Assembly (NCBI GenBank): GCA_965279515.1
Contig: CBDIID010000003.1
Location: 4,096,001 to 4,160,000 of the forward strand
Length of the DNA stretch: 64,000 nt
Direction of reading: 5' to 3'
From: Turneriella sp.
GTDB lineage: Bacteria > Spirochaetota > Leptospiria > Turneriellales > Turneriellaceae
Numbering within the stretch: the stretch's first letter is position 1; each line of letters starts with the position of its first letter. The notes beneath the pieces were generated by a model. It saw nothing but the letters and a program-made list of their open reading frames with translations, was not told the DNA's origin and did no database searches. Made by a program: the position numbers and the translations under genes. Shown piece after piece: positions 16,045 to 32,504 of this stretch.

Positions 16045-16692
16045 TTAGTTGAGATCGTTATCGACGGCGAAACGTATGAGGCCCGAAAGAGTATTGATAC
16101 GAAGTTTGGTTTTCATGTTTAGCCGGTGTGTTTCAACCGTTCTGAAATTTATTCCCATGCGCTCGCCGATTTCCTTGCAACTCATACCCTGCGCAGTGAG
16201 GCGGAGCACTTCCCGTTCTTTTTTCGTCAGTATTTCGGAAGCCACCGTTTTTTCCACGTCCAGGCTTAGATTATCGAGCATCACGGAGGTCAGCTCAGGG
16301 CAGAGGTATTTCCGGCCGGCAAAAACCTCATCGATTGCCCGCGACAAACGGGCCATAGCGTCTTCTTTCAATACATATCCACGGGCGCCTTTGGCGAATG
16401 CTTTTTTTACAAAAGCGCGGTCGCTATGTGAAGTGAGTACAACAGGTCTTACTTTGGGAAATTTTTCGCGCATTTTCTCAAGCGCTTCAAAGCCATTCAT
16501 CTGCGGCATGGCCAGATCCATAATGACAACATCGCAGGGCACAGAGGCCAGTTTGCTGAGTAATTCCGTCCCGTCAGAGGCTTCAGCAACAACCTGGTAT
16601 TGGGGTTTTGACTCGATCAGTAGTTTTAATCCCGCACGTATCAGCTTGTGGTCGTCAGCAAGGATTAAGCGGCATTTTTTGGTATTATTCAC
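16045..16692 (-). CDS. NarL/LuxR-family DNA-binding response regulator
   Basis: LADDH, MDLAMP, LTKKEREVL...TVETHR HTH. Confidence 0.92.
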   Translation of the reverse strand: MNNTKKCRLILADDHKLIRAGLKLLIESKPQYQVVAEASDGTELLSKLASVPCDVVIMDLAMPQMNGFEALEKMREKFPKVRPVVLTSHSDRAFVKKAFAKGARGYVLKEDAMARLSRAIDEVFAGRKYLCPELTSVMLDNLSLDVEKTVASEILTKKEREVLRLTAQGMSCKEIGERMGINFRTVETHRLNMKTKLRINTLSGLIRFAVDNDLN

Positions 16693-16806
16693 GGTAACTA
16701 TTTCCGGAAAAAAGGTTGGCTATACCTTGTTACTACCGTCCCAAAAGATAAACAACAATATGCGGGCAATCACAATGAACGTGAGTCTCGTTTGATATGA
16801 TATGAT

Positions 16807-18464: not shown

Positions 18465-18944
18465 TTACCCAGGTTCTGATTGTCCTGGGCTAGCCTCATC
18501 GGCGCTATTTTTTTCCGGTTTTCGATTTAGGTACCTTAATACTTTAATCAAGCTAAGTAAATTTTCCGGAGGAATTCCCTCATGGCCCGAAGATGTGAAG
18601 GTGTCCACAACGTCACGGATTGGTCGCGCTAAGTTCTTACGGTCGTCATAGTACATAGTCCATATCGGTAAAATTCTTTGATCGGAGCTTGCCTAGCAGA
18701 CAACCTTTACCATTGAATGCCTGTCGTCGTGAGCAATGTTTCTGAACAGAGTCCTGACATCAGTCTCACGACCCTCTATTAACTGAAAAAATGTATGATC
18801 ACCATACGTTAGAAAGCCTGTCACATTAAATTCTCCGTTGCGCTTTCTTGCATGGTAGAGCAAATTTCTCACCTTGGAAGAATTCATCGTCGGTGAAGCG
18901 GTGCTAACATAAACCAAGTGAAAAATCTTATCTGGAGCTGCCAT
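18465..18944 (-). pseudogene. BLUF blue-light sensor interrupted by an in-frame TAG
   Basis: LVYVS, RNGEFNVTGFL, FFQLIEG, DDRH, then TAG at 18693-18695, continuing in frame ASSDQRILPIWTMYY (BLUF W/M motif) to stop at 18465. Confidence 0.75.
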
Positions 18945-23347: not shown

Positions 23348-25291
23348 TTACGATTGCAGTTTCGATTTTTCATCGGTAATTAACTCGACGATTCCCTGAA
23401 TATCGACTATCAGAGCCATATCTCCGTCTCCGAGTATGGTAGCCCCGCCGAGACCGGGGATTCCCGAAAGAAATCCATTCAGGGGTTTGATCACGGTCTG
23501 ATATTCACCGAGGGGTTCATCGACAACAATGCCAATCCTTGCCGCACCCCACTGAATGACGACCAGGCTCTCACGGTCTATTTGTTTGCCCGGGATGTGG
23601 AAAATTTGTTTGAGCCGCACGTAGGGAAGAACCTCGCCGCGCAGATTGAAAAGCTGGCTTTCATACTCGGATTTTTTTTCCGCATCCTGCCTGAAATCGA
23701 TGCACTCTTTGATGGCTTCCAGGGGAATAATGAATCTCTGACTCTCTGACCGCACGAGAAAACCGTCGATGATGGCGAGGGTAAGGGGTAAGGCGATACG
23801 CATTGTCGTACCTTTGCCCTCTTCAGAATAGATGCGGATCGTACCACGCAGCGCTTCGATGTTCTTCTTCACGACATCCATGCCCACGCCGCGGCCTGAA
23901 AGCTCGGTTACGGTGTCAGCGGTTGAGAAACCGGGTTGCAGAATAAATTGCTGTATCTCCGTCGCCGAATATTCGCGATCTTCACCGGCGATGCCGCGTT
24001 CACGCGCTTTTTGAAGGATTTTCTGGTAGTTAAGACCGCGCCCATCATCTGTAATCTCAATGACGATGGTGCCGGCTTCATGAAAAGCCGTGAGAGAGAT
24101 TGTGCCTGATCTGGCTTTGCCACGTTCTTCGCGTTCCTCGGCTGATTCGATCCCGTGATCTATTGCATTACGTATGATGTGCACCAGCGGATCGTTAATT
24201 TTTTCAATGACGTTTTTATCGAGTTCGGTTTCCTCACCGTGGAAAGCGATCGTGATTTCCTTGCCAATTCGCGCCGCAGTATCACGAACGATGCGCTCCA
24301 TTTTCCGGAATGTTGCACCTATGGGAACCATCCGCAGATTCATCGCCAGTTCGCGGACGTTCTCCACAAGCCGCGACATTTCCTTCACTGGTTTCAGGAA
24401 AGCCCGCACCTGGTGTGCCTGAACCAATTGCTGCAGGCTGCTGTTTTTCATAACCAATTCGCCGACTAAATTGACGAAATCATCAAGTTTGCCGGCGTCC
24501 ACGCGGATCGAGTGCCCCGTACGCGTTTTCGCTTCCTGCTTGGGGATACTTCCGTGTATAACTGCCGCGCCCTCTGGCTCTGCCTGCCGGATCGCAGTGA
24601 TCGTGGCCTGGGATTTCAGGAATTCAAATGCTTCATCGATAACGGTTGCGGCTGTGACAGCATTGACATGCTCAGAAAATTGAATGCCTATTTTCAGATA
24701 ACACGATTCCGGATCGTAGTTTTCGGCAAGGGGAATGGAGTCCGGATAGACCCATACCGAATCGACATCGCTGTTTTTCAGCAGATAGCCCAAGGCGTTT
24801 TCGAGCGACATGCGCGAGCGGAAGAGATCCTCGCTGGTGGCGATGGAATAACTTAAGGGCGCGGGTCTCGATGCCGGAGTTGCAAGAAGCTGGTTGAGCC
24901 GCAGCATCAGGGCATTGCTGATTGCTGTGAGCTCCGTGTCGGCCGGTCCGGTATTTTCAGCCTCGGTATAATAAGCCAGTAATGCCTGCAGGTGGTCATA
25001 ACCATTAAAGAGTAGTGTCGTAAGTTCCCTTGTAAGTACAAGGTTTTGACTGCGCAGCGCATCCAGAACATTCTCCATGGTATGCGCAAAACGGATGAGT
25101 TCGTCGTAAGCAAAAACGGCTCCAGACCCTTTGATCGTGTGCACGGCGCGAAAAGCTGTGTGGATGGACTCCATATTAGAAGTATCTTTCTCCAGATCCA
25201 GGAGCGCACGCTCAAATGCTGTCATGTGCTCTCTCGCATCTTCAAGATACGCAGAACGCAGATTATCCATGTTGATCTGAAGGTTTGCCAT
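23348..25291 (-). CDS. cheA: CheA histidine kinase
   Basis: FRAVHTIKG (P1), [28 protein letters not shown]-terminal CheW-like domain. Confidence 0.93.
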
Positions 25292-25674
25292 TAGAACTCC
25301 TGTGGGGCTACCCCATAGCGAAATCGGCTGCCAGCTTCCGGACCTTTCTGTAAAACAATTTTATCCCGAAACAGCCCGGTGACTCCGTACATCTCGATCA
25401 GTTTAAGAGCGGGGGCGGAATGGTTGATGAATTTTACTTTCGTTCGCGTCAGGTGTGCGTTTTTCTTAAGCACTGCCAGAAGTTGAATTCCCGCTGTATC
25501 GATATCATCCAGAGATTTCAGATCCAAAACGAGCATGTCATAGGCACGCAGGTATGGAAAAATATCCAGCCAGGCGTTTTTGACAGACATCGCTGTGAGC
25601 GGTCCGGCGCATGTGATGACGCAGCGCCGGTCCTTATCGTAGGTCTTCTCAATGCGCATCGATGAGTTTTGCAA
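25291..25674 (-). CDS. STAS domain protein
   Basis: LDLKSLDDIDTAGIQLL motif; directly upstream of cheA; start may be MRIEKT. Confidence 0.8.
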   Translation of the reverse strand: MQNSSMRIEKTYDKDRRCVITCAGPLTAMSVKNAWLDIFPYLRAYDMLVLDLKSLDDIDTAGIQLLAVLKKNAHLTRTKVKFINHSAPALKLIEMYGVTGLFRDKIVLQKGPEAGSRFRYGVAPQEF

Positions 25675-25957
25675 AGTAACCTGAAAAGTTAAGATCCCGG
25701 ATCAGACCGATAATTTTAGGCGTACTTTCAAGGTTTGCCGGTAGGGTGTTTTGCTGTAGTTTTAACCCCAGAGATGCAAGAACGCTAAGGTTCTGCATGG
25801 AAAGCACCGAATCATCGTATACGCGCACGGTTACGTTCTCCAGCTTTTCCTGGTCGAGCACGTATTCCAGTTCTGTCCAAATCTTGTATGTCCCCTTATC
25901 GAGATCTGTTTTCTCCAGGGATAAAAAAAGCTTATTGCTATTTCTGACTAAATTCAT
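25649..25957 (-). CDS. Hypothetical protein (possible degenerate STAS fold)
   Basis: Overlaps next gene; GGAGG Shine-Dalgarno upstream; first gene of the che operon. Confidence 0.55.
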   Translation of the reverse strand: MNLVRNSNKLFLSLEKTDLDKGTYKIWTELEYVLDQEKLENVTVRVYDDSVLSMQNLSVLASLGLKLQQNTLPANLESTPKIIGLIRDLNFSGYFAKLIDAH

Positions 25958-26201
25958 TTGCGTTCCTCCCGCGGTGCGTATGATTTAACACATTTTCAGT
26001 CCGGTGTCAATTTGCCCATGAACGTAATTTTCTGCGCGGAAACACGCAGATTTGGGGAAAATTTGATGATTTTTGGCAGCCATCGGGGGTACTTACTGCC
26101 AAAACTTCCCGCTTTTCATGATTGACGGGGTGATCTGTAGCCTGTACGAGTGTGCATCTTATGTCGTAATATTTCCAAAGAAACCGTCTTACACTGCGGG
26201 A

Positions 26202-26636
26202 ATGGGTTTACTTGTCGATGTGAGGTTTAACGAAATGGTAATTGCAAATCATCAAAAGAATCGGGTTGAAAACGTGGTAGCGGAATATTGGATTCAAGAC
26301 GGTATTTTGCACGGGCGGTTCAAAAGTGGAGCCCTGATTGATCTTGAGGCGGCCAAGGACTGTTTGAAGATTCGCAACCAGATTCTCGGCGATCAGACAC
26401 TTCCTCTTCTTTTAGACGTCCGCGGCTTAAAAGAACTCACGAAATCGGCACGTGATTTTTTGGGTTCCCCGCAGTGCATGAAAGGGACGTCCGCCGGGGT
26501 ATTGTTGACGAATAACTCAATTTTCGTGCGCACCGTTGCCAATATTTTTTTTCGCCTCGCGACACCGGCGATTCCCCACCGCATGTATTCGGATTTGGCA
26601 ACAGCAGAGAAATGGCTGTCCTCGTACAAAGCCTGA
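26202..26636 (+). CDS. STAS/SEC14-like (SpoIIAA-like) small protein
   Basis: YWIQDGIL..IDLEAAK..LLLDVRGLKELTKSARDFL..MYSDLATAEKWL pattern; start uncertain. Confidence 0.65.
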   Translation: MGLLVDVRFNEMVIANHQKNRVENVVAEYWIQDGILHGRFKSGALIDLEAAKDCLKIRNQILGDQTLPLLLDVRGLKELTKSARDFLGSPQCMKGTSAGVLLTNNSIFVRTVANIFFRLATPAIPHRMYSDLATAEKWLSSYKA

Positions 26637-26754
26637 TTGCTTGCCGATGGAATATCATATCTGGCAAATAGCCGAACACCGCCCGTGGGTTCTGCTCTGA
26701 TTTTTTTACTGTCTAGACCGCCGGTTGAGGACGGAATATTAATGCAGGAGAAGA

Positions 26755-27675
26755 ATGATATCCGAGGGATTCGAAAATACGGATAAGGAAGTCCCGGATT
26801 CTGCATCTGAGGAAAAAATCCAAAAACTCATTGATTGTATTCTAAAAGCCGCTGCCGGTGACCGCTCCGCATTTTTTGATTTCTCACCCGATGGTGATTC
26901 TGTCGATGCAATTGGCCTTGCTTACAACAGTCTTCTGGAGGAAGTTCGCAGTTCTCACGACCAGCGTGAGAAAGACCTTTTGGCGTGGCGGCGTGCCTTG
27001 CACGATATTCGCGGTCCGATCAGTTCGATCCCATTGCTCATTGAGACATTGACTCAGGCTCGCCATAGGGGTGAAACCAGCGAAGATGCATCGGCGCAGA
27101 TTTTGTCAGCAATCGCCGCCTCCTGCAAAATCATGCTCTCAAAAATCAGCCATGCCCTCACCGGTGAATACGCCGCTGCAATAAGTACAGAGAAAATTTA
27201 TATCCGGGACCTGGTTGAAGAAGCGGTAACGGTCTCTATGATTAACCAATTGCTGGCAAATTATACGATAAGTCTCAGCGTCCCTGATGATTTTATGCTC
27301 TTCAGTGATCGTCACCTCTTACTGTCCGTGGTGAAAAATCTCATAGAAAATTCGTGTAAATACCGTCGTCCTGAGGTTCCCGGATTGCTGAATATTTCAG
27401 CTTTCAATAAAGCGGGAAAAAGCGTGATACGGTTTGCCGATAATGGCACGGGTATTCAGAGGGAACATATTTCGCGTATCTTTCAGGCGTATACTCAACT
27501 AAACGAAAAAGCCGAGGGCTTGGGCTATGGGCTATATTCAGTGAAACGTGATGTTGAAGCTCTGGGCGGGGACATCTCTGTCTCCAGTATATTCGGACAT
27601 GGGGTTACGATTGAAGTCAGTCTGGATCAGGTAACTGACAGTAACGCATTCCGGCGTAAAAAAGATATTACATAA
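26755..27675 (+). CDS. Soluble sensor histidine kinase with HAMP-like N-terminus
   Basis: HDIRGPI H-box, NLIENSCKY, DNGTGI, GLGYGL; no TM. Confidence 0.85.
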   Translation: MISEGFENTDKEVPDSASEEKIQKLIDCILKAAAGDRSAFFDFSPDGDSVDAIGLAYNSLLEEVRSSHDQREKDLLAWRRALHDIRGPISSIPLLIETLTQARHRGETSEDASAQILSAIAASCKIMLSKISHALTGEYAAAISTEKIYIRDLVEEAVTVSMINQLLANYTISLSVPDDFMLFSDRHLLLSVVKNLIENSCKYRRPEVPGLLNISAFNKAGKSVIRFADNGTGIQREHISRIFQAYTQLNEKAEGLGYGLYSVKRDVEALGGDISVSSIFGHGVTIEVSLDQVTDSNAFRRKKDIT

Positions 27676-30115
27676 TGGACATTTTGCTCATTGCAAAATT
27701 ATCTTCATTATCCGCAAACATCACTGTCGGTAGCGGTAAGGCTCCTAATCTCTGTTTTTCCACAGATGCGGTGAAAGCAAGCTGCACTGTTCCACAATGC
27801 AGCTCTTTCGCACGAATGATATTGCGGTACATGATCTGACGGTAGGGTTCGTGTTTTTCCATCAGGGAATAATCTGTTCCAACCAGCATGGGGCAGTAGG
27901 TCTTTCCATTCACGAAATTAAAGCAGAAAGCCGCAACGTTGTCGTACGCGGTCTTTCCGTGTTCCTGCCGCAAGCGGATGATAAGTATTTCCCAGCTCGG
28001 AGATTTACCAATAGCCGCGAAAAGTGAGAAGGGCAGATCAAACGTATTCAGTTCGGTTTTATTTTTTTTCAGGCCACAATAAAGTCGGTAAAGTGTTTGC
28101 AGCCCTTCAGTCGTGGGGTTTTTCCACAGTTCAAGGTTGAAATCCGAGAAATGGTCGAATACATGGCGACGAATGTGGCGGCGGGAATTCTTCGAAAGAC
28201 CATAATAATACTCCTCCGCTGTTTTCCAGGCAGAGATATCGAGAATATGATTGTCAGGCATATCGTATGGAAAAAAGCCTTCTTTGATGAACAAGTCTTT
28301 GAGCTCGGCATCATTTTTTGCGAAGTCGCGCAGCACTATTGCTTTGGCGCCCATTTCCTGCCGATCTTTGCCGGCGCGTTCGAGTAGGGCTACCATAGCT
28401 CCCTGCCATTGTTTATGCGCGCGGTTTAAATACAGGTGATCGCCTTCGGTCAGCGGTGTGCCCATACCGTAGTAAACCGCACAGAGGTAATAGGGATCCG
28501 ATTTGCGTTGTTCTTCGACAGCGGAAGAAATGCGGGCCGAGGCGAGCATATCTTCTTTTGTCCAAGCCAGCGTAAAAAAAGTCACCAGAATTATATTACC
28601 TTCGCGGTCAAGCACCTGATAATAGCGGATTTTCCAGTTATTTTCTTTTTCCGGATTATTCTGAAAAGTTTCCTCTAGCAGTCTTAAGCCTTGCCAGTTA
28701 AACGCCCCTTTGCCTTCAAAATAGTTATCCCATTCCGCCGCCGGTATCTGCTTGATCGAATCAAAACACTTTACGGTGAAAATTTCACTTCCGGTTTTTT
28801 GCGCACGACCGCCGTTGAATGCCGGAGTTTCCTGGGCACCGTCGATTTTGAAAGCTTTGTAGACGTCTTCAATCGTTCGGCCTTCTTCGGCAAGGGCGAG
28901 CGGAAGGTGGTATTCGACAGCATCCATCAGGTTCTTTATATCTGCCTTGCTCGTATGTAGCGTAAACGTTAGCCTTAACCCTGTGTTCTTCACGGGGACG
29001 GCGGGGAAAATCGCAAGATTGGTGTAGAAGCCGTCGAGCATGAGCCGGCGTGAAATATTATATCCGACCCGGGGGTGTCCCAGGCAAATAAAGAATATCG
29101 GCGATCGGCTGAGTTCGACATACGGCAGTTTCTTATCGATGATCAGCTGATTCCCGTAATCAATGCGGGCCATGAGTTCTTGCTGCATTGGTGGTAATTC
29201 ATCAGAAAGCATGATATCGGCGGAAGCTAAGGAGGCCCCGAGCACCGGGGGGACCAATGGGCCTGAAAAAATCATCGTATAGCCAATGGTGCGGACTTTT
29301 TCCGCCGTTTTCTTATCAGGGAAGACCAGCACCCCCCCCGTGGTGCCGAATGCCTTGGCTAGCGAGGTCGCAAGTACCATCTTGGGGTGTAGCTCGATCT
29401 GGCTGAGTGTATATCCCCTTCCGTATTTCCCTGCCCAGCCCATACCATGGGCGTCATCGACATAGAGGTGGAACTGGTCGTATTGGTCGAGCATTTGGCT
29501 TAGTTGCGCGACGGGCGCCAGTTGACCGTACATCGAATAGACGCCATCGATCATATACCAGATGCGCCGGTGTTTTTGCCGCAGAATTTTGATCTGCTCC
29601 TCCAGTTTGTCCAGCCGGTTATGCCGCAGAATGTCGACTTTGACGCCCCGGCTTTTTTCCGTGGTTACCGCCCTCTGCACGCTGGCATGCACAAACTGAT
29701 CCAGAATTACGGCATCATCGTCGGTCAAAAGAGTTGGTAAGGAAGAAAAGTGTCCCAATGTCGTCGTTGGGGCGATAACGATATGCCCGCCAAAGAGTTT
29801 TTCAAATTTTTCTTCGAGGGCGTCATAAAGTCCCGAGGAAAGGTAGGCTCGCGACGAAGAAACCTGGGTCCCATGCTTGAGCACAGCGGCGATGGCCCCG
29901 TCTTGCAATCTTTTATCAGTTTCTAACCCCAAATAGCTGCAATTTCCGAAGTTAATAAGGGGGGTGTCATAGGTTTTCAGCTTTAGTAGCCGGCCGTCGA
30001 TTTTATCGAGTTTTTCAATATAATCGGTATCTGAAGAAAGCTGCCACACGCCATTTTGCATTGCTCCCTTAAAAACTTCGTCCACAGTATCAAGAAAGCT
30101 ATTGTGTTTGCTCAT
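27668..30115 (-). CDS. Alpha-oxoamine synthase (BioF/CqsA-like PLP enzyme) fused to a GNAT/FemAB-like domain
   Basis: NCSYLGL, DQFVHAS, RHN, DGVYSMYG, DDAHG, TSLAKAFG (PLP Lys); C-terminal ~370 aa resembling the FemAB-like GNAT at 30569. Confidence 0.85.
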   Translation of the reverse strand: MSKHNSFLDTVDEVFKGAMQNGVWQLSSDTDYIEKLDKIDGRLLKLKTYDTPLINFGNCSYLGLETDKRLQDGAIAAVLKHGTQVSSSRAYLSSGLYDALEEKFEKLFGGHIVIAPTTTLGHFSSLPTLLTDDDAVILDQFVHASVQRAVTTEKSRGVKVDILRHNRLDKLEEQIKILRQKHRRIWYMIDGVYSMYGQLAPVAQLSQMLDQYDQFHLYVDDAHGMGWAGKYGRGYTLSQIELHPKMVLATSLAKAFGTTGGVLVFPDKKTAEKVRTIGYTMIFSGPLVPPVLGASLASADIMLSDELPPMQQELMARIDYGNQLIIDKKLPYVELSRSPIFFICLGHPRVGYNISRRLMLDGFYTNLAIFPAVPVKNTGLRLTFTLHTSKADIKNLMDAVEYHLPLALAEEGRTIEDVYKAFKIDGAQETPAFNGGRAQKTGSEIFTVKCFDSIKQIPAAEWDNYFEGKGAFNWQGLRLLEETFQNNPEKENNWKIRYYQVLDREGNIILVTFFTLAWTKEDMLASARISSAVEEQRKSDPYYLCAVYYGMGTPLTEGDHLYLNRAHKQWQGAMVALLERAGKDRQEMGAKAIVLRDFAKNDAELKDLFIKEGFFPYDMPDNHILDISAWKTAEEYYYGLSKNSRRHIRRHVFDHFSDFNLELWKNPTTEGLQTLYRLYCGLKKNKTELNTFDLPFSLFAAIGKSPSWEILIIRLRQEHGKTAYDNVAAFCFNFVNGKTYCPMLVGTDYSLMEKHEPYRQIMYRNIIRAKELHCGTVQLAFTASVEKQRLGALPLPTVMFADNEDNFAMSKMSIM

Positions 30116-30217
30116 CTATCCCCCCGCAATCTGCTTTTGCGAATATGTTCTGTCGAGGCGGAAATCTACAAAAATTTGACAACCTCAGCCAAAAATTGCG
30201 CCACGTATTCCGTGGCG

Positions 30218-30580
30218 GTGAAAATTCTCGTGGTTGAAGATGATCCAGCCACCCAGTTTTTACTGAAGATTTGGCTTGAACCATTGGGGGAGATTTTTAT
30301 CTGTAATCACGGCGGAGAGGCATGGGAAATCCTTACCGGCGGGGCCATGTTCGACTTAATCGTGACGGATCACGAAATGCCTTGGCTAACCGGAAGAGCC
30401 CTGGTCGAGAAGATCCGCTCCGAGAAAAAATTTGATGGGATTCCAATTATTATGGTAACCGCGTCCATCGATCCTTTGGAAGTAGATGACCTGAAGATCC
30501 ACGGCTTTTTTGAGAAACCGATCAAACCAGAGGCCTTAATTGCCGCCGCACAAGGTGCTATGCGGAGCTCAGGACTCTAA
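30218..30580 (+). CDS. Single-domain response regulator
   Basis: VKILVVEDD, TDHEMP, EKP; GTG start inferred. Confidence 0.85.
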   Translation: MKILVVEDDPATQFLLKIWLEPLGEIFICNHGGEAWEILTGGAMFDLIVTDHEMPWLTGRALVEKIRSEKKFDGIPIIMVTASIDPLEVDDLKIHGFFEKPIKPEALIAAAQGAMRSSGL

Positions 30581-31729
30581 TTCCGGAATATACTGCGGCT
30601 CGTCTTTATTGGGGGACGCCGCACGGTAGGCCTTAAGTGCCCGAACGGTTGCCCGCCGCTCACGGCTGAGAAAAGCGCCGATAGCCTCTGCACCCTGGGG
30701 ATGAAAAAGCTTATGGCTGCTATAGACGGGCATTGCGGTGAAGCCCCGCTGGAATTTATGTTCGCCCTGCGCCCCAGCCTCAAAAAGCGAAATCTTCTCT
30801 GCAATGGCAAAATCGATCAGCCGGTAAAAACAAAGTTCAAAGTGCAGATAAGGGTAATGCGCCGCGGCGCCCCAGTAGCGCCCGAACAGGCGGTCATCCT
30901 TGCGGAAGGCGATCGAACCCGCAACCCAGGCTTTACCTTCGCGTGCCAGCACCAGAACAAGCTGATCTGCCATACACTGGCGCAGCAATAAAAAACATTC
31001 GAGGTTGAGATAGGGGGATCCCCACTTGCGGGAGTAGGTCTGGATATAAAATGTATACATGGCACGCATATGCTCTTCAGAAATTGCCTCGCCGGTAAGC
31101 GTCACAATTTCCAGTCCGAGTTCGCTGCATTTACGGCGTTCGCGTTTGATCTCTTTGCGGCGGTGAGAGCGCAGTTGCGCCAGGTAGTCCTCAAAATCCT
31201 GGAATCCCCGGTTCAACCAATGGTACTGGTGCGTGAGACGGGGCATGTAGCCGAATTCAGAAAGCAGTTTTTGTTCTGCGCGGGTCAGGCAGAGAAAATG
31301 AATTCCTGAGGCGCCTGTGGCCTCGGCCTCGTCGAGTTTTTCAATGAGTCCTCGTGCAAGACCGGCAGCGTCACTGCCCACGAGAATGCGCCGGCCCGAG
31401 GCTGGAGTAAAGGGCGCCGCTACGGTAATTTTCGGGTAATATCTCAGCCCGCCCTGTTCATAGGCATTGGCCCATGCCCAGTCGAAAATATATTCGCCGT
31501 AAGAGTCGCCGCGCAGGTAGGCGGGAATCACTCCCACCAGTTGATCATCTGCGAATGCCGCGCTAAAGGCCGTCAACCAGCCGCTTTTTTTACCGGTGCA
31601 GCCGGTTTCCTCGAGCGCTGAGAGAAATTCATGGCGCATAAAAGGATTACCCGCTTCGACGAGCGTATTCCACGCATCGGGATGAATTTCCTTTATGGAA
31701 GTCAGGCGCCTGAATGTGTATTTAGCCAA
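30569..31729 (-). CDS. FemAB-like GNAT protein (DUF482 type)
   Basis: NPF..HEFLSALE, SYGEYIFDWAWA, GRYWG, HFELCFY, EAGAQGEHK. Confidence 0.88.
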   Translation of the reverse strand: MAKYTFRRLTSIKEIHPDAWNTLVEAGNPFMRHEFLSALEETGCTGKKSGWLTAFSAAFADDQLVGVIPAYLRGDSYGEYIFDWAWANAYEQGGLRYYPKITVAAPFTPASGRRILVGSDAAGLARGLIEKLDEAEATGASGIHFLCLTRAEQKLLSEFGYMPRLTHQYHWLNRGFQDFEDYLAQLRSHRRKEIKRERRKCSELGLEIVTLTGEAISEEHMRAMYTFYIQTYSRKWGSPYLNLECFLLLRQCMADQLVLVLAREGKAWVAGSIAFRKDDRLFGRYWGAAAHYPYLHFELCFYRLIDFAIAEKISLFEAGAQGEHKFQRGFTAMPVYSSHKLFHPQGAEAIGAFLSRERRATVRALKAYRAASPNKDEPQYIPELES

Positions 31730-32504
31730 ATCGAACCGAAGTCATGGTGATCGCGCCGCCGACGGGCTCTGCGTTAAAATATTCTGCTTTTTCTGCCGGA
31801 TGGCTGAGGCCCAGAATGTAGAGCAGCGGCACATAGTGCTCCGCGCTGTTGATGGCGGTCTCTGCGCTTTTGCCGAGCGACTTCCAGTCGATGAGCCGCT
31901 GCCAGTCTTTTGCGTTGATGAGTTTGACGACGAGGCTGTCGGCCTCGCGTGCCCAGTCATGCGCGTAACCGGTCTCGTTCAGCCGCGCCCAGTCGACGAG
32001 ACGCAGGTTGTGCACGATATTGCCGCTGCCGATAAAGAGGATTCCCTTGTCGCGGAGCGGCCGCAATTTTTCACCGATCTTGAAGAACATATCCGGCGAC
32101 GCCGCCGCGTCGATCGATAGCTGTAAGACCGGTACATCGGCGGCCGCATGCATATGGACAAGCACGCTCCAGGTGCCGTGATCGAGGCCCCAGTCTTCCG
32201 TCAGAGTGGCTGCGCAAGTACCCACAAGTGCCCTTTTCAACTCCTCTGCGACTTCGGGTGAACCGGGAGCCGGGTACTGAACTGCGAAAAGCTCTTGCGG
32301 AAAACCGCCAAAATCGTGTATGGTTTTTGGTTTTTTATTCGAGGTGATCTGGGTACCGCGTGTCAGCCAGTGCGCGGAGATACAGACGACGGCGCGGGGT
32401 TGCGGCAGCGCTGCGCCGATTTTTTTCCAGGTTGCAGAAAATCCGTTATTCTCAATCGCATTCATCGGCGAGCCGTGGCCGATGAAAAAAACGGGAAGTT
32501 TCAG
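31722..32504 (-). CDS. ygiD: 4,5-DOPA extradiol dioxygenase (YgiD-like)
   Basis: Upstream extension LKLPVFFIGHGSPMNA, ISAHW, IHDFGGFP, GLDHGTW, GSGNIVHNL, EHYVPL; CTG start after AGGAGG. Confidence 0.88.
   Translation of the reverse strand: MKLPVFFIGHGSPMNAIENNGFSATWKKIGAALPQPRAVVCISAHWLTRGTQITSNKKPKTIHDFGGFPQELFAVQYPAPGSPEVAEELKRALVGTCAATLTEDWGLDHGTWSVLVHMHAAADVPVLQLSIDAAASPDMFFKIGEKLRPLRDKGILFIGSGNIVHNLRLVDWARLNETGYAHDWAREADSLVVKLINAKDWQRLIDWKSLGKSAETAINSAEHYVPLLYILGLSHPAEKAEYFNAEPVGGAITMTSVRFG

Follow-up and report, generated by a model that had tools for sequence, protein, structure and literature searches.

The closest described systems are the CqsA/CqsS and LqsA/LqsS pairs of alpha-hydroxyketone quorum sensing (PMC3376566). 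Like CqsA and LqsA, as the available portions of that paper present them, the enzyme analyzed here belongs to the alpha-oxoamine synthase (AOS) family and lies beside a histidine kinase, an arrangement seen at 43 of 53 homologous loci. Unlike CqsA, it carries an extra FemX-fold domain, has a DUF7793 partner and reaches 78 bits against the CqsA-family model NF005526, whose cut-off is 428; unlike CqsS and LqsS, its kinase is without a membrane receptor region, and zero hydrophobic segments occur in 75 of 75 such HAMP kinases. The CqsA-like layout is found instead among unfused relatives of the enzyme, where the adjoining kinases carry four to five hydrophobic segments (nine of nine, picked by hand). 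NCBIfam models gave no match to the membrane sensor regions beside the unfused enzymes and so show no link to CqsS.

Other described systems resemble parts of the locus. Alb29, the AOS of albogrisin, uses L-glutamate and acyl-CoAs (PMC11906848), but unlike the fusion it stands alone and belongs to a natural-product pathway. FemX-type aminoacyl-tRNA transferases have been described along with DhpH-C and Sbb17 (PMC12945691), and the second half of the fusion is like FemX and Sbb17 in its double-GNAT build; its invariant late Lys and basic helix may be further points of likeness. In the formation of the pyrazinones AI-3 and DPO, an aminoketone and an activated amino acid are joined and then cyclized (PMC13220807), chemistry that the fusion could perform within one polypeptide; these compounds differ in their origin, which lies in Tdh and in abortive products of tRNA synthetases and involves no dedicated synthase in the available portions of that paper, and in having other receptors. 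BioF2/Rv0032 of M. tuberculosis also combines an AOS with an N-acyltransferase region, is unable to complement bioF and is of unknown function (PMC12910592, PMC6923341). It differs, by description rather than by sequence, in that its extra domain is N-terminal (the reverse order) and its AOS SPT-like, and no kinase link is reported in the available portions of either paper. Lastly, the SpoIIAA-like/CRAL-TRIO-like proteins of Shewanella, with a small SpoIIAA fold and an opening hydrophobic cavity (PMC2954212), provide a model for DUF7793 as a ligand binder, although they belong to family PF11964 and the available portions of the paper describe no kinase partner.

The window, a 64,000-nucleotide stretch of a Turneriella sp. 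contig, was checked for open reading frames, and the four genes of the initial annotation proved real and intact. They encode a DUF7793 protein (26202..26636, plus strand; ~130-144 amino acids, with the ATG at 26235 as a possible start), a soluble HAMP-HisKA-HATPase histidine kinase (26755..27675, plus strand; 306 amino acids), the 815-amino-acid fusion (27668-30115, minus strand) and, divergent from the synthase, a single-domain receiver (30218..30580, plus strand) with a PF00072 match and the motifs VEDD, VTDHEMP, MVTA and EKP. As annotated, the 3' end of the fusion overlaps that of the convergent kinase, by 8 bp, and the gene does sit amid signalling genes: in the scanned interval 9717-30580, the other Pfam-matched proteins except DUF7793 are all signalling proteins. 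The cassette lies in an island of assorted signalling genes that is specific to the lineage; across the genome, a kinase or receiver is found within 4 kb of 11-12% of genes. One public contig (run X4), which may come from the source of the same DNA, spans 24500-32000 with 0 differences; read mapping with three metagenomes gave short pieces only. No plasmid match at E<=1e-40 was found, nor any tRNA in the window. On the right, the receiver is adjoined by a FemAB-like gene and a dioxygenase, both core genes. The FemAB-like gene was rejected as part of the module, as it is a syntenic core gene in three congeners without the fusion and its similarity is weak (E 0.002).

Taken together, sequence and predicted structure indicate that the 815-amino-acid protein is an Alb29/PRK07505-like AOS fused to a FemX-fold double GNAT. 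The AOS half (residues 1 to ~425; 28841..30115, minus strand) matches PF00155 and has the expected motifs SYLGL (60), HAS (143), DGVYSM (190), DDAH (220) and SLAK (251), with the PLP fold type I residues K254, H143, D220/H223 and R381 kept in 117 of 117 homologues. Against AOS structures it gives Z-scores of 37-44. Its best solved relative is Alb29 (sequence E-value 2e-32; rank 1 in Foldseek), with a VIA Z of 44.0 that is tied with SPT at 44.1 and an identity of only 26-28%. PRK07505 (NF005697) is the best NCBIfam model, at 246 bits below its cut-off of 342, and group members among six homologues and relatives tested score 245-289. Scores are far lower for the BioF model TIGR00858 (151 bits, cut-off 426) and the SPT models NF047600/599/603 (133/132/91 bits, cut-offs 640/500/670); a separate BioF-like gene elsewhere in the genome, at 378 bits, is the better BioF candidate. 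These comparisons place the enzyme nearest to Alb29/PRK07505 rather than to CqsA. The neighbors that recur beside fusions include no biotin cluster and no reductase, ACP or lipid-export cluster. Some fusions are longer, such as P0167, with an extra AMP-binding and two carrier domains, and P0274, with an extra acyl-CoA-binding domain.

The other half (residues 441-815; 27668..28795, minus strand) had been called FemAB-like GNAT, and its predicted structure upholds the FemX fold, though PF13480 reaches only 21.3 bits (cut-off 22). The predicted model (pLDDT 94.4) is closest to FemX (Z 23.5), Sbb17 (22.7) and FemA (22.3); its four best structural matches are all FemX, FemA or Sbb17 (Z 21.0-23.5), in keeping with a double GNAT, at 12-15% identity to FemX-type structures. 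NMT protein N-acyltransferases share the fold (Z 16.4), and the GNAT profile has no PDB sequence match. K787, Y758 and G746 are invariant in all 95 GNAT halves, and K787 may be the equivalent of FemX Lys305, as judged by position and motif rather than by residue-level superposition. A basic helix (639-652) carries 3-6 Lys/Arg in all 95 and could bind either tRNA or an acidic ACP. DhpH, with its N-terminal PLP domain, is likewise a fusion of a PLP domain and a GNAT.

The small protein, initially taken for a STAS/SEC14-like protein, belongs instead to Pfam family DUF7793 (PF25056; 92 bits, cut-off 26, E-value 3.4e-26). PF01740 (STAS) has no match in it, and comparing the DUF7793 profile with the window's true STAS protein revealed no similarity. 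A conserved DSSG-type motif, the phospho-Ser motif of STAS anti-anti-sigma factors, does not occur in the DUF7793 alignment (A3); lacking both profile match and motif, the family was rejected as a phospho-STAS. Its possible connection to SpoIIAA consists of two elements. The profile matches PDB 3bl4, an 'uncharacterized protein' (E 2e-15), which may tie DUF7793 to SpoIIAA-like proteins and which is absent from PMC2954212, and the Atlas look-alikes of one homologue include a DUF7793/SpoIIAA-like cluster with PF11964 on 13% of its members. For 91 of 106 HAMP kinases, the gene immediately upstream encodes DUF7793, and a lone DUF7793 occurs in 10 of 13 congeners. We regard it as a candidate ligand-binding subunit of the kinase.

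The kinase itself matches PF02518 and NCBIfam kinase models covering residues 82-290, with H-box LHDIRGP at 82, N-box at 195, G1 at 229 and G2 at 255, and, as first described, contains no predicted membrane segment. What is conserved among the partner kinases is a HAMP-like N-terminus (26800..26988, plus strand, from alignments A2/A4), which Pfam HAMP (PF00672) at E<=0.1 detects in 16 of 68 members (best 8e-6), the window's member being unmatched. The domain has one match in the window's genome and none in 13 congeners. It is carried by 41 HisKA_3-like, 16 HisKA-like, 1 HisKA_2 and 3 other cores; the HAMP input is retained while kinase cores and outputs vary. Half of the HAMP-carrying genomes (16 of 32) have it without the fusion, and at loci fetched for weaker HAMP matches DUF7793 is upstream in 18 of 20, with no synthase in the stretch. 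DUF7793-HAMP pairs are thus common without the enzyme, and the sensor pair can therefore do without it.

A neighborhood survey, on which the initial annotation had staked its proposal, found signalling partners enriched and the module conserved. Within 4 kb of the fusion at 53 homologous loci with full flanks were DUF7793 (44), a HAMP kinase (39) and HATPase (43); collapsed at 75% identity, the counts are 27, 22 and 26 of 34. Part of this enrichment is circular, because these loci were themselves the source of the HAMP and DUF profiles, as they were of the palindrome discussed below. High-GC loci L033, L035, L060 and L140 were left out because of ORF calling; guessed ORFs in L033 and L035 have almost no Pfam matches. 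Distal flanks contain DUF7793 at 2 of 40 and HATPase at 5 of 40, and the genome background for HATPase is 423 of 3850. None of 19 unfused relatives has DUF7793 or the HAMP kinase within 4 kb, and DUF7793 linkage follows the GNAT half; 17 of 20 unfused enzymes fall in one clade of a quick tree, and the contrast appears close to a single event. Some unfused relatives lie beside short-chain reductases, or beside a fatty-acid hydroxylase and a glycosyltransferase. In an evenly drawn sample of 201 genomes, DUF7793 is within 4 kb of 22 of 24 fusions and a HAMP kinase of 16. Across 100 fusions, DUF7793 is divergent in 58, downstream in 16, convergent in 1 and missing within 4 kb in 25, the last including some short flanks. 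Joint duplications of synthase and kinase occur in L006, with identities of 47% for the synthases, 43% for the kinases and 38% for the DUFs, and in L102 (72% and 55%). Other sensors also occur: the fusion is paired with an unrelated multi-TM HisKA sensor in L002 and L102, and with a TonB receptor, YfiR and a CHASE8 kinase in L061 and L091. A split AOS and FemX-like pair, from another AOS subfamily, lies among kinases in four genomes, two of them with FadL.

Elsewhere the output is most often a NarL/LuxR-type regulator, assigned by HMM at 24 of 50 fusion loci, and single-domain receivers are near 12 of 50; that of the window is the likely output of its cassette. A palindrome with consensus TACGT-N6-ACGTA, a putative operator, lies upstream of the synthase at 20 of the 43 loci that have a NarL-type regulator vs 0 of 26 without, at 0 of 29 unfused relatives and in 9 of 875 controls. 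In 10 of 24 it is followed, 83-86 bp on, by a -7-like element that faces the synthase. It is absent from the window's synthase promoter (best 7/10). This association suggests feedback on the synthase. The proposed relay to local che/cAMP/c-di-GMP genes found no support: the che operon was rejected as an obligatory output, as its orthologue is placed elsewhere in the fusion-less G013 of the same genus and the usual partner is the NarL/LuxR-type regulator.

The initial interpretation as a signal synthase/sensor module is thus partly supported. The cassette is probably, though far from certainly, an autoinducer-like circuit in which an alpha-aminoketone, N-(amino)acylated, is sensed by DUF7793 and the HAMP kinase. 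From its enzyme class, as given by sequence and fold, the PLP half would form an alpha-aminoketone by condensing an amino acid and a fatty acyl-CoA/ACP, and the FemX-fold half may acylate the new amine. The donor could be an aminoacyl-tRNA, giving an N-aminoacyl-aminoketone that, like AI-3/DPO precursors, could cyclize to a pyrazinone. About equally, it could be a second acyl thioester, in which case the product would be an N-acyl-aminoketone. The genetic linkage suggests that the product would enter the cytoplasm, bind DUF7793 and control the kinase via its membrane-free HAMP. The kinase would phosphorylate the receiver, in many Bacteroidota a NarL/LuxR regulator, and the regulator, presumably binding the putative operator in the synthase promoter, would close a feedback loop. 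The window's version, in its lineage-specific island, would use a single-domain receiver without the operator.

Against this circuit stand the DUF7793-HAMP pairs without the enzyme, the 25 of 100 fusions that lack a DUF7793 neighbor within 4 kb, and 5 of 26 full-flank loci without a NarL regulator at which DUF7793, HAMP and HATPase genes are all missing. The putative operator alone would account for the clustering of regulator and target without any signal. The synthase may then be a regulated biosynthetic gene, the DUF7793-HAMP kinase sensing an unrelated cue and the product being a lipid, namely a ceramide-like N-acyl-aminoketone, or some other metabolite. The tracking of NarL by the palindrome, the many DUF-HAMP pairs without enzyme, the ligase-carrier-AOS-GNAT fusion P0167, the reductases, hydroxylase and glycosyltransferase near some unfused relatives, and the proposal of N-acylation before reduction in Caulobacter ceramide synthesis (PMC9386255) all fit. 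We nevertheless consider it unlikely: the linkage of DUF7793 and HAMP persists in 13 of 26 full-flank loci without NarL/operator, the window's type, unrelated sensors are recruited in other lineages, enzyme-kinase pairs are co-duplicated, and there is no recurrent reductase, ACP or lipid-export cluster. With a single-sequence template, hhalign gave no clear similarity (E 0.17) to YghO, which is the homologue in E. coli of the ceramide N-acyltransferase that has been proposed. Still less probable is an intracellular switch, with the enzyme reporting amino-acid, acyl-CoA or charged-tRNA status via a non-diffusing product or (amino)acylating DUF7793/HAMP. The parts are indeed all cytoplasmic, the DUF7793 linkage follows the GNAT half and NMT shares the fold, but fusions also pair with membrane/periplasmic sensors and a TonB receptor, the split system carries FadL, and orphan DUF-HAMP pairs come without an enzyme to modify them. 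That a BioF/SPT-like housekeeping enzyme lies here by chance, for which the mixed island and the 11-12% background speak, is barely credible and largely refuted by the survey, given the same partners in several gene orders at most homologous loci, the low BioF and SPT scores and the better BioF candidate elsewhere.

In the full text of mainly open-access papers, we found no description of such a cassette, nothing on an oxoamine synthase-GNAT fusion or DUF7793, and nothing on a STAS/SEC14 protein with a histidine kinase or a GNAT-type bacterial ceramide synthase. From its gene content, the cassette appears to be a previously undescribed circuit for signalling between cells. A more specific form of the autoinducer-like circuit is possible, if doubtful: a widespread, Bacteroidota-centred quorum sensing in which a single polypeptide makes a long-chain pyrazinone or N-aminoacyl-aminoketone from acyl thioester, amino acid and aminoacyl-tRNA, DUF7793 proteins are cytoplasmic receptors gating HAMP kinases, synthase-less pairs are eavesdropping 'solo' receptors, and unfused relatives make a plain aminoketone for membrane kinases. 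Synthase, candidate receptor, kinase, regulator and putative operator are all named, and the circuit is therefore directly testable. In the major Bacteroidota class sampled, the fusion occurs in about one in ten genomes (20 of 201) and DUF7793 in nearly half (96 of 201). If the circuit is real, it would provide an autoinducer system for Bacteroidota and a function for DUF7793, a new form of histidine-kinase control in which a small partner acts on an unanchored HAMP, and perhaps an enzyme dedicated to the kind of chemistry that AI-3 and DPO owe to side reactions.

The four genes called in the initial annotation are present as described in the window sequence: a small gene at 26202-26636 (+), a kinase gene at 26755-27675 (+), the 815-aa fusion at 27668-30115 (-) and a single-domain receiver at 30218-30580 (+). 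The small protein had been labelled STAS/SEC14-like; the gene stands, but a Pfam search places it in family DUF7793. A motif check of the kinase finds its H, N, G1, F and G2 boxes all intact, a scan shows no hydrophobic segments, and the protein begins with a HAMP-like domain at residues 15-79, as judged by alignments and Pfam comparison of homologues. The predicted fold of the fusion is confident (pLDDT 92.8), with a PLP half and a second, GNAT half. Sequence assigns the PLP half to the alpha-oxoamine synthases (AOS), with H143, D220, H223, K254 and R381 kept in 117/117 aligned homologues (120 listed, three partial ones omitted). It scores under all curated NCBIfam cut-offs, including BioF (151/426), SPT (133/640), the CqsA family (78/428) and the highest-scoring model, PRK07505 (246/342). 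Separate BioF-like and SPT/Kbl-like genes occur elsewhere in the genome. The closest solved relative by sequence and structure search is Alb29, whose substrates, in the available part of the source, are L-glutamate and acyl-CoAs (PMC11906848).

Folded alone, the GNAT half matches FemX best (Z 23.5, rmsd 4.7, 307 aligned), followed by the aminoacyl-tRNA peptide synthase Sbb17 (Z 22.7, rmsd 3.0, 271 aligned), FemA (Z 22.3) and MprF (Z 18.3), with acyl-CoA tandem GNATs at Z 18.1 or below. Lys787 is invariant, and a basic helix is likewise kept, in 95/95 homologues. These are putative counterparts, matched by kind, of the pair of features that PMC12945691 reports in FemX and DhpH-C. A search of 198-676-aa proteins with this half gave 22 matches, a good number of them lying on short contigs or marked as partial, so its close relatives are mostly fused. 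Among 381 clusters found with the profile at E<=1e-30, one carries AMP-binding and two carrier domains in front and another an acyl-CoA-binding domain, which points to a fatty acyl thioester.

The signalling partners predicted for this enzyme do recur. Of 160 loci fetched, 156 were anchored (100 fused, 39 with unfused ~425-aa enzymes, 17 unclear), with neighbours labelled by profiles built from these same loci and the window's genome, and the main counts are confined to loci having at least 4 kb on both flanks. Among 53 such fused loci, DUF7793 occurs in 44, the HAMP kinase in 39, HATPase in 43 and a receiver in 41; the corresponding counts for 19 unfused loci are 0, 0, 10 and 12, a contrast amounting to roughly one event, since 17/20 unfused enzymes form a single clade (SH 97, quick tree). 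After dereplication at 75%, DUF7793 remains in 27/34 fused loci, the HAMP kinase in 22/34 and HATPase in 26/34. For comparison, the outer flanks (more than 4 kb away) of 40 fused loci contain DUF7793 in 2, HATPase in 5 and a receiver in 7, and 423/3850 genes of the window's genome have a HATPase within 4 kb. As a check free of locus-choice bias, 201 genomes were sampled from the class of the Imperialibacter genome G042 (which holds L006 and was itself counted). The fusion is found in 20 genomes, the HAMP profile in 32 (16 of them with the fusion) and DUF7793 in 96 (one, G133, unpublished), including 20/20 with the fusion. Within 4 kb of the 24 fusion genes lie DUF7793 in 22 cases, HAMP in 16 and HATPase in 17.

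Gene order differs between loci, and HAMP is the conserved part of the partner kinases, being joined to 41 HisKA_3-like, 16 HisKA-like, one HisKA_2 and three other cores. No hydrophobic segments were found in any of 75 HAMP kinases, and DUF7793 is directly upstream of 91/106 (not dereplicated). Outputs near 50 fused loci are NarL/LuxR (24), single receivers (12), hybrid kinases (10) and LytTR (1). At 21 loci, including L027:10540-10770 and L028:10421-10654, a ~77-aa protein of no Pfam family follows directly 3' of the fusion; its cluster (cluster 2) covers 23 loci, and the window has no copy. The fusion gene is broken by a stop or frameshift in L034, L055 and L141, the first two of which still have apparently intact sensor genes; assembly error or lost signal production could account for the breaks.

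The divergent promoters of these loci also yielded a palindrome, TACGT-N6-ACGTA, which presumably resembles NarL 7-2-7 sites. Scored at >=9/10 matches in the 250 bp ahead of the synthase, the palindrome is present in 20/43 loci with a NarL-type regulator versus 0/26 full-flank loci without one, and in 5/30 short-flank loci, 0/29 unfused loci and 9/875 other upstream regions. Bacteroidota promoters have a -7 element, and 10/24 palindromes, several from related Chitinophagaceae, stand 83-86 bp before a loose -7-like match facing the synthase. The palindrome is absent upstream of the window's synthase, as expected where the likely output is a single-domain receiver.

The analysis establishes the class of the enzyme, its folds, the conservation of its active sites, the linkage and an operator correlation. 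We consider the cassette more probably than not a signal circuit. The PLP half would form an aminoketone, which the GNAT half would N-acylate or N-aminoacylate. The product might cyclise, giving a pyrazinone in the way reported for precursors of AI-3 (PMC13220807), and may bind DUF7793, by analogy with SpoIIAA-like proteins, which form a cavity (PMC2954212, in part); that likeness is drawn solely from Atlas cluster look-alikes of a DUF7793 homologue. DUF7793 would then control the kinase via HAMP. Limits on the signal-circuit reading come from the near-single-event contrast between fused and unfused loci and from the frequent occurrence of DUF7793-HAMP pairs without the enzyme; in addition, certain unfused relatives adjoin reductases or lipid genes, and 5/26 full-flank non-NarL fusion loci are without DUF7793, HAMP and HATPase genes. 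A regulated lipid or metabolite enzyme is a considerably less probable reading, an intracellular sensor or protein-modifying switch is unlikely, and chance placement is hardly credible.

As a signal circuit, the cassette would work like CqsA/CqsS, yet it falls outside that group. BioF2 also joins an AOS to an acyltransferase, but in reverse order and, in the accessible parts of PMC12910592 and PMC6923341, without assigned function. Main texts, mostly of papers free of subscription, gave no account of an AOS-GNAT fusion with kinases or of DUF7793, and both the synthase chemistry and the receptor design appear undescribed so far.

Other pairings of enzyme and sensor occur. Multi-membrane HisKA kinases flank the fusion in L002 and L102, the latter having enzyme and kinase duplicated as a pair; L006 holds the synthase, kinase and DUF7793 genes in two copies each, arranged as a mirror; and in L061/L091 the fusion has a TonB receptor on one side and YfiR with a CHASE8 kinase on the other. 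The unfused clade sits beside multi-helix membrane kinases (one MASE7) in L013, L019, L032, L053, L071, L075, L081, L087 and L129. Nine hand-picked kinases beside unfused enzymes have 4-5 hydrophobic segments each, a CqsS-like layout; CqsS binds its signal by its first helices (PMC3376566, in part). An NCBIfam search of their membrane regions brought up no model, and so no link to CqsS; the Bacteroidota loci of this clade are candidates for CqsA/CqsS-like systems. Four genomes from a single family of the window's phylum (L213-L216; G421, G495, G532, G346) have an SPT/Kbl-like AOS and a FemAB-like GNAT as separate genes among kinases, which may be another lipid-signal cassette not yet described. 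The two genes are flanked by hybrid kinases and by tandem ~545-aa kinases, of which one gives a weak V4R match; FadL (two genomes) and B12 radical-SAM or desaturase-like genes accompany them.

The FemAB-like gene (window 30569) is one gene away from the MscS gene (window 7752) in three congeners, which makes the 21-kb signalling stretch that separates the two genes in the window specific to its lineage; these congeners carry a PRK/cNMP gene in its place. The island (~9600-30580) comprises HD-GYP, adenylate cyclases, a 7TM-DISM kinase, CheD/CheB, BLUF, a che operon and the cassette. Its ORFs 16049-16795, in a position that would suit a CheR-like gene, and 25649-25957, the first gene of the che operon, belong to no Pfam family, and an 83-aa stand-alone BLUF protein (18693-18944) lies within the che/cyclase cluster. 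The fusion occurs in 1/301 genomes of the phylum, and the window's kinase core finds its best matches among the fetched loci (91 bits vs 69 within its own genome), which is consistent with joint acquisition. The suggested relay from the cassette to the che genes is unsupported: in G013, a genome without the fusion, the che operon orthologue is located elsewhere.

Neither the HAMP kinase nor the fusion was found in 13 congeners, 10 of which have a lone DUF7793. A second DUF7793 in the window's genome (G000:C3:3295292-3295624) has no kinase nearby and adjoins VTT and EcsC genes. Among 20 fetched loci with weaker HAMP matches, DUF7793 is upstream in 18 and no synthase occurs within the fetched stretch; the DUF7793-HAMP pair is thus common without the enzyme. 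Some of these operons (L162-L181) hold up to five tandem DUF7793 copies (L170, L180). As a side reading, DUF7793-HAMP operons would represent cytoplasmic sensors of a general type in Bacteroidota.
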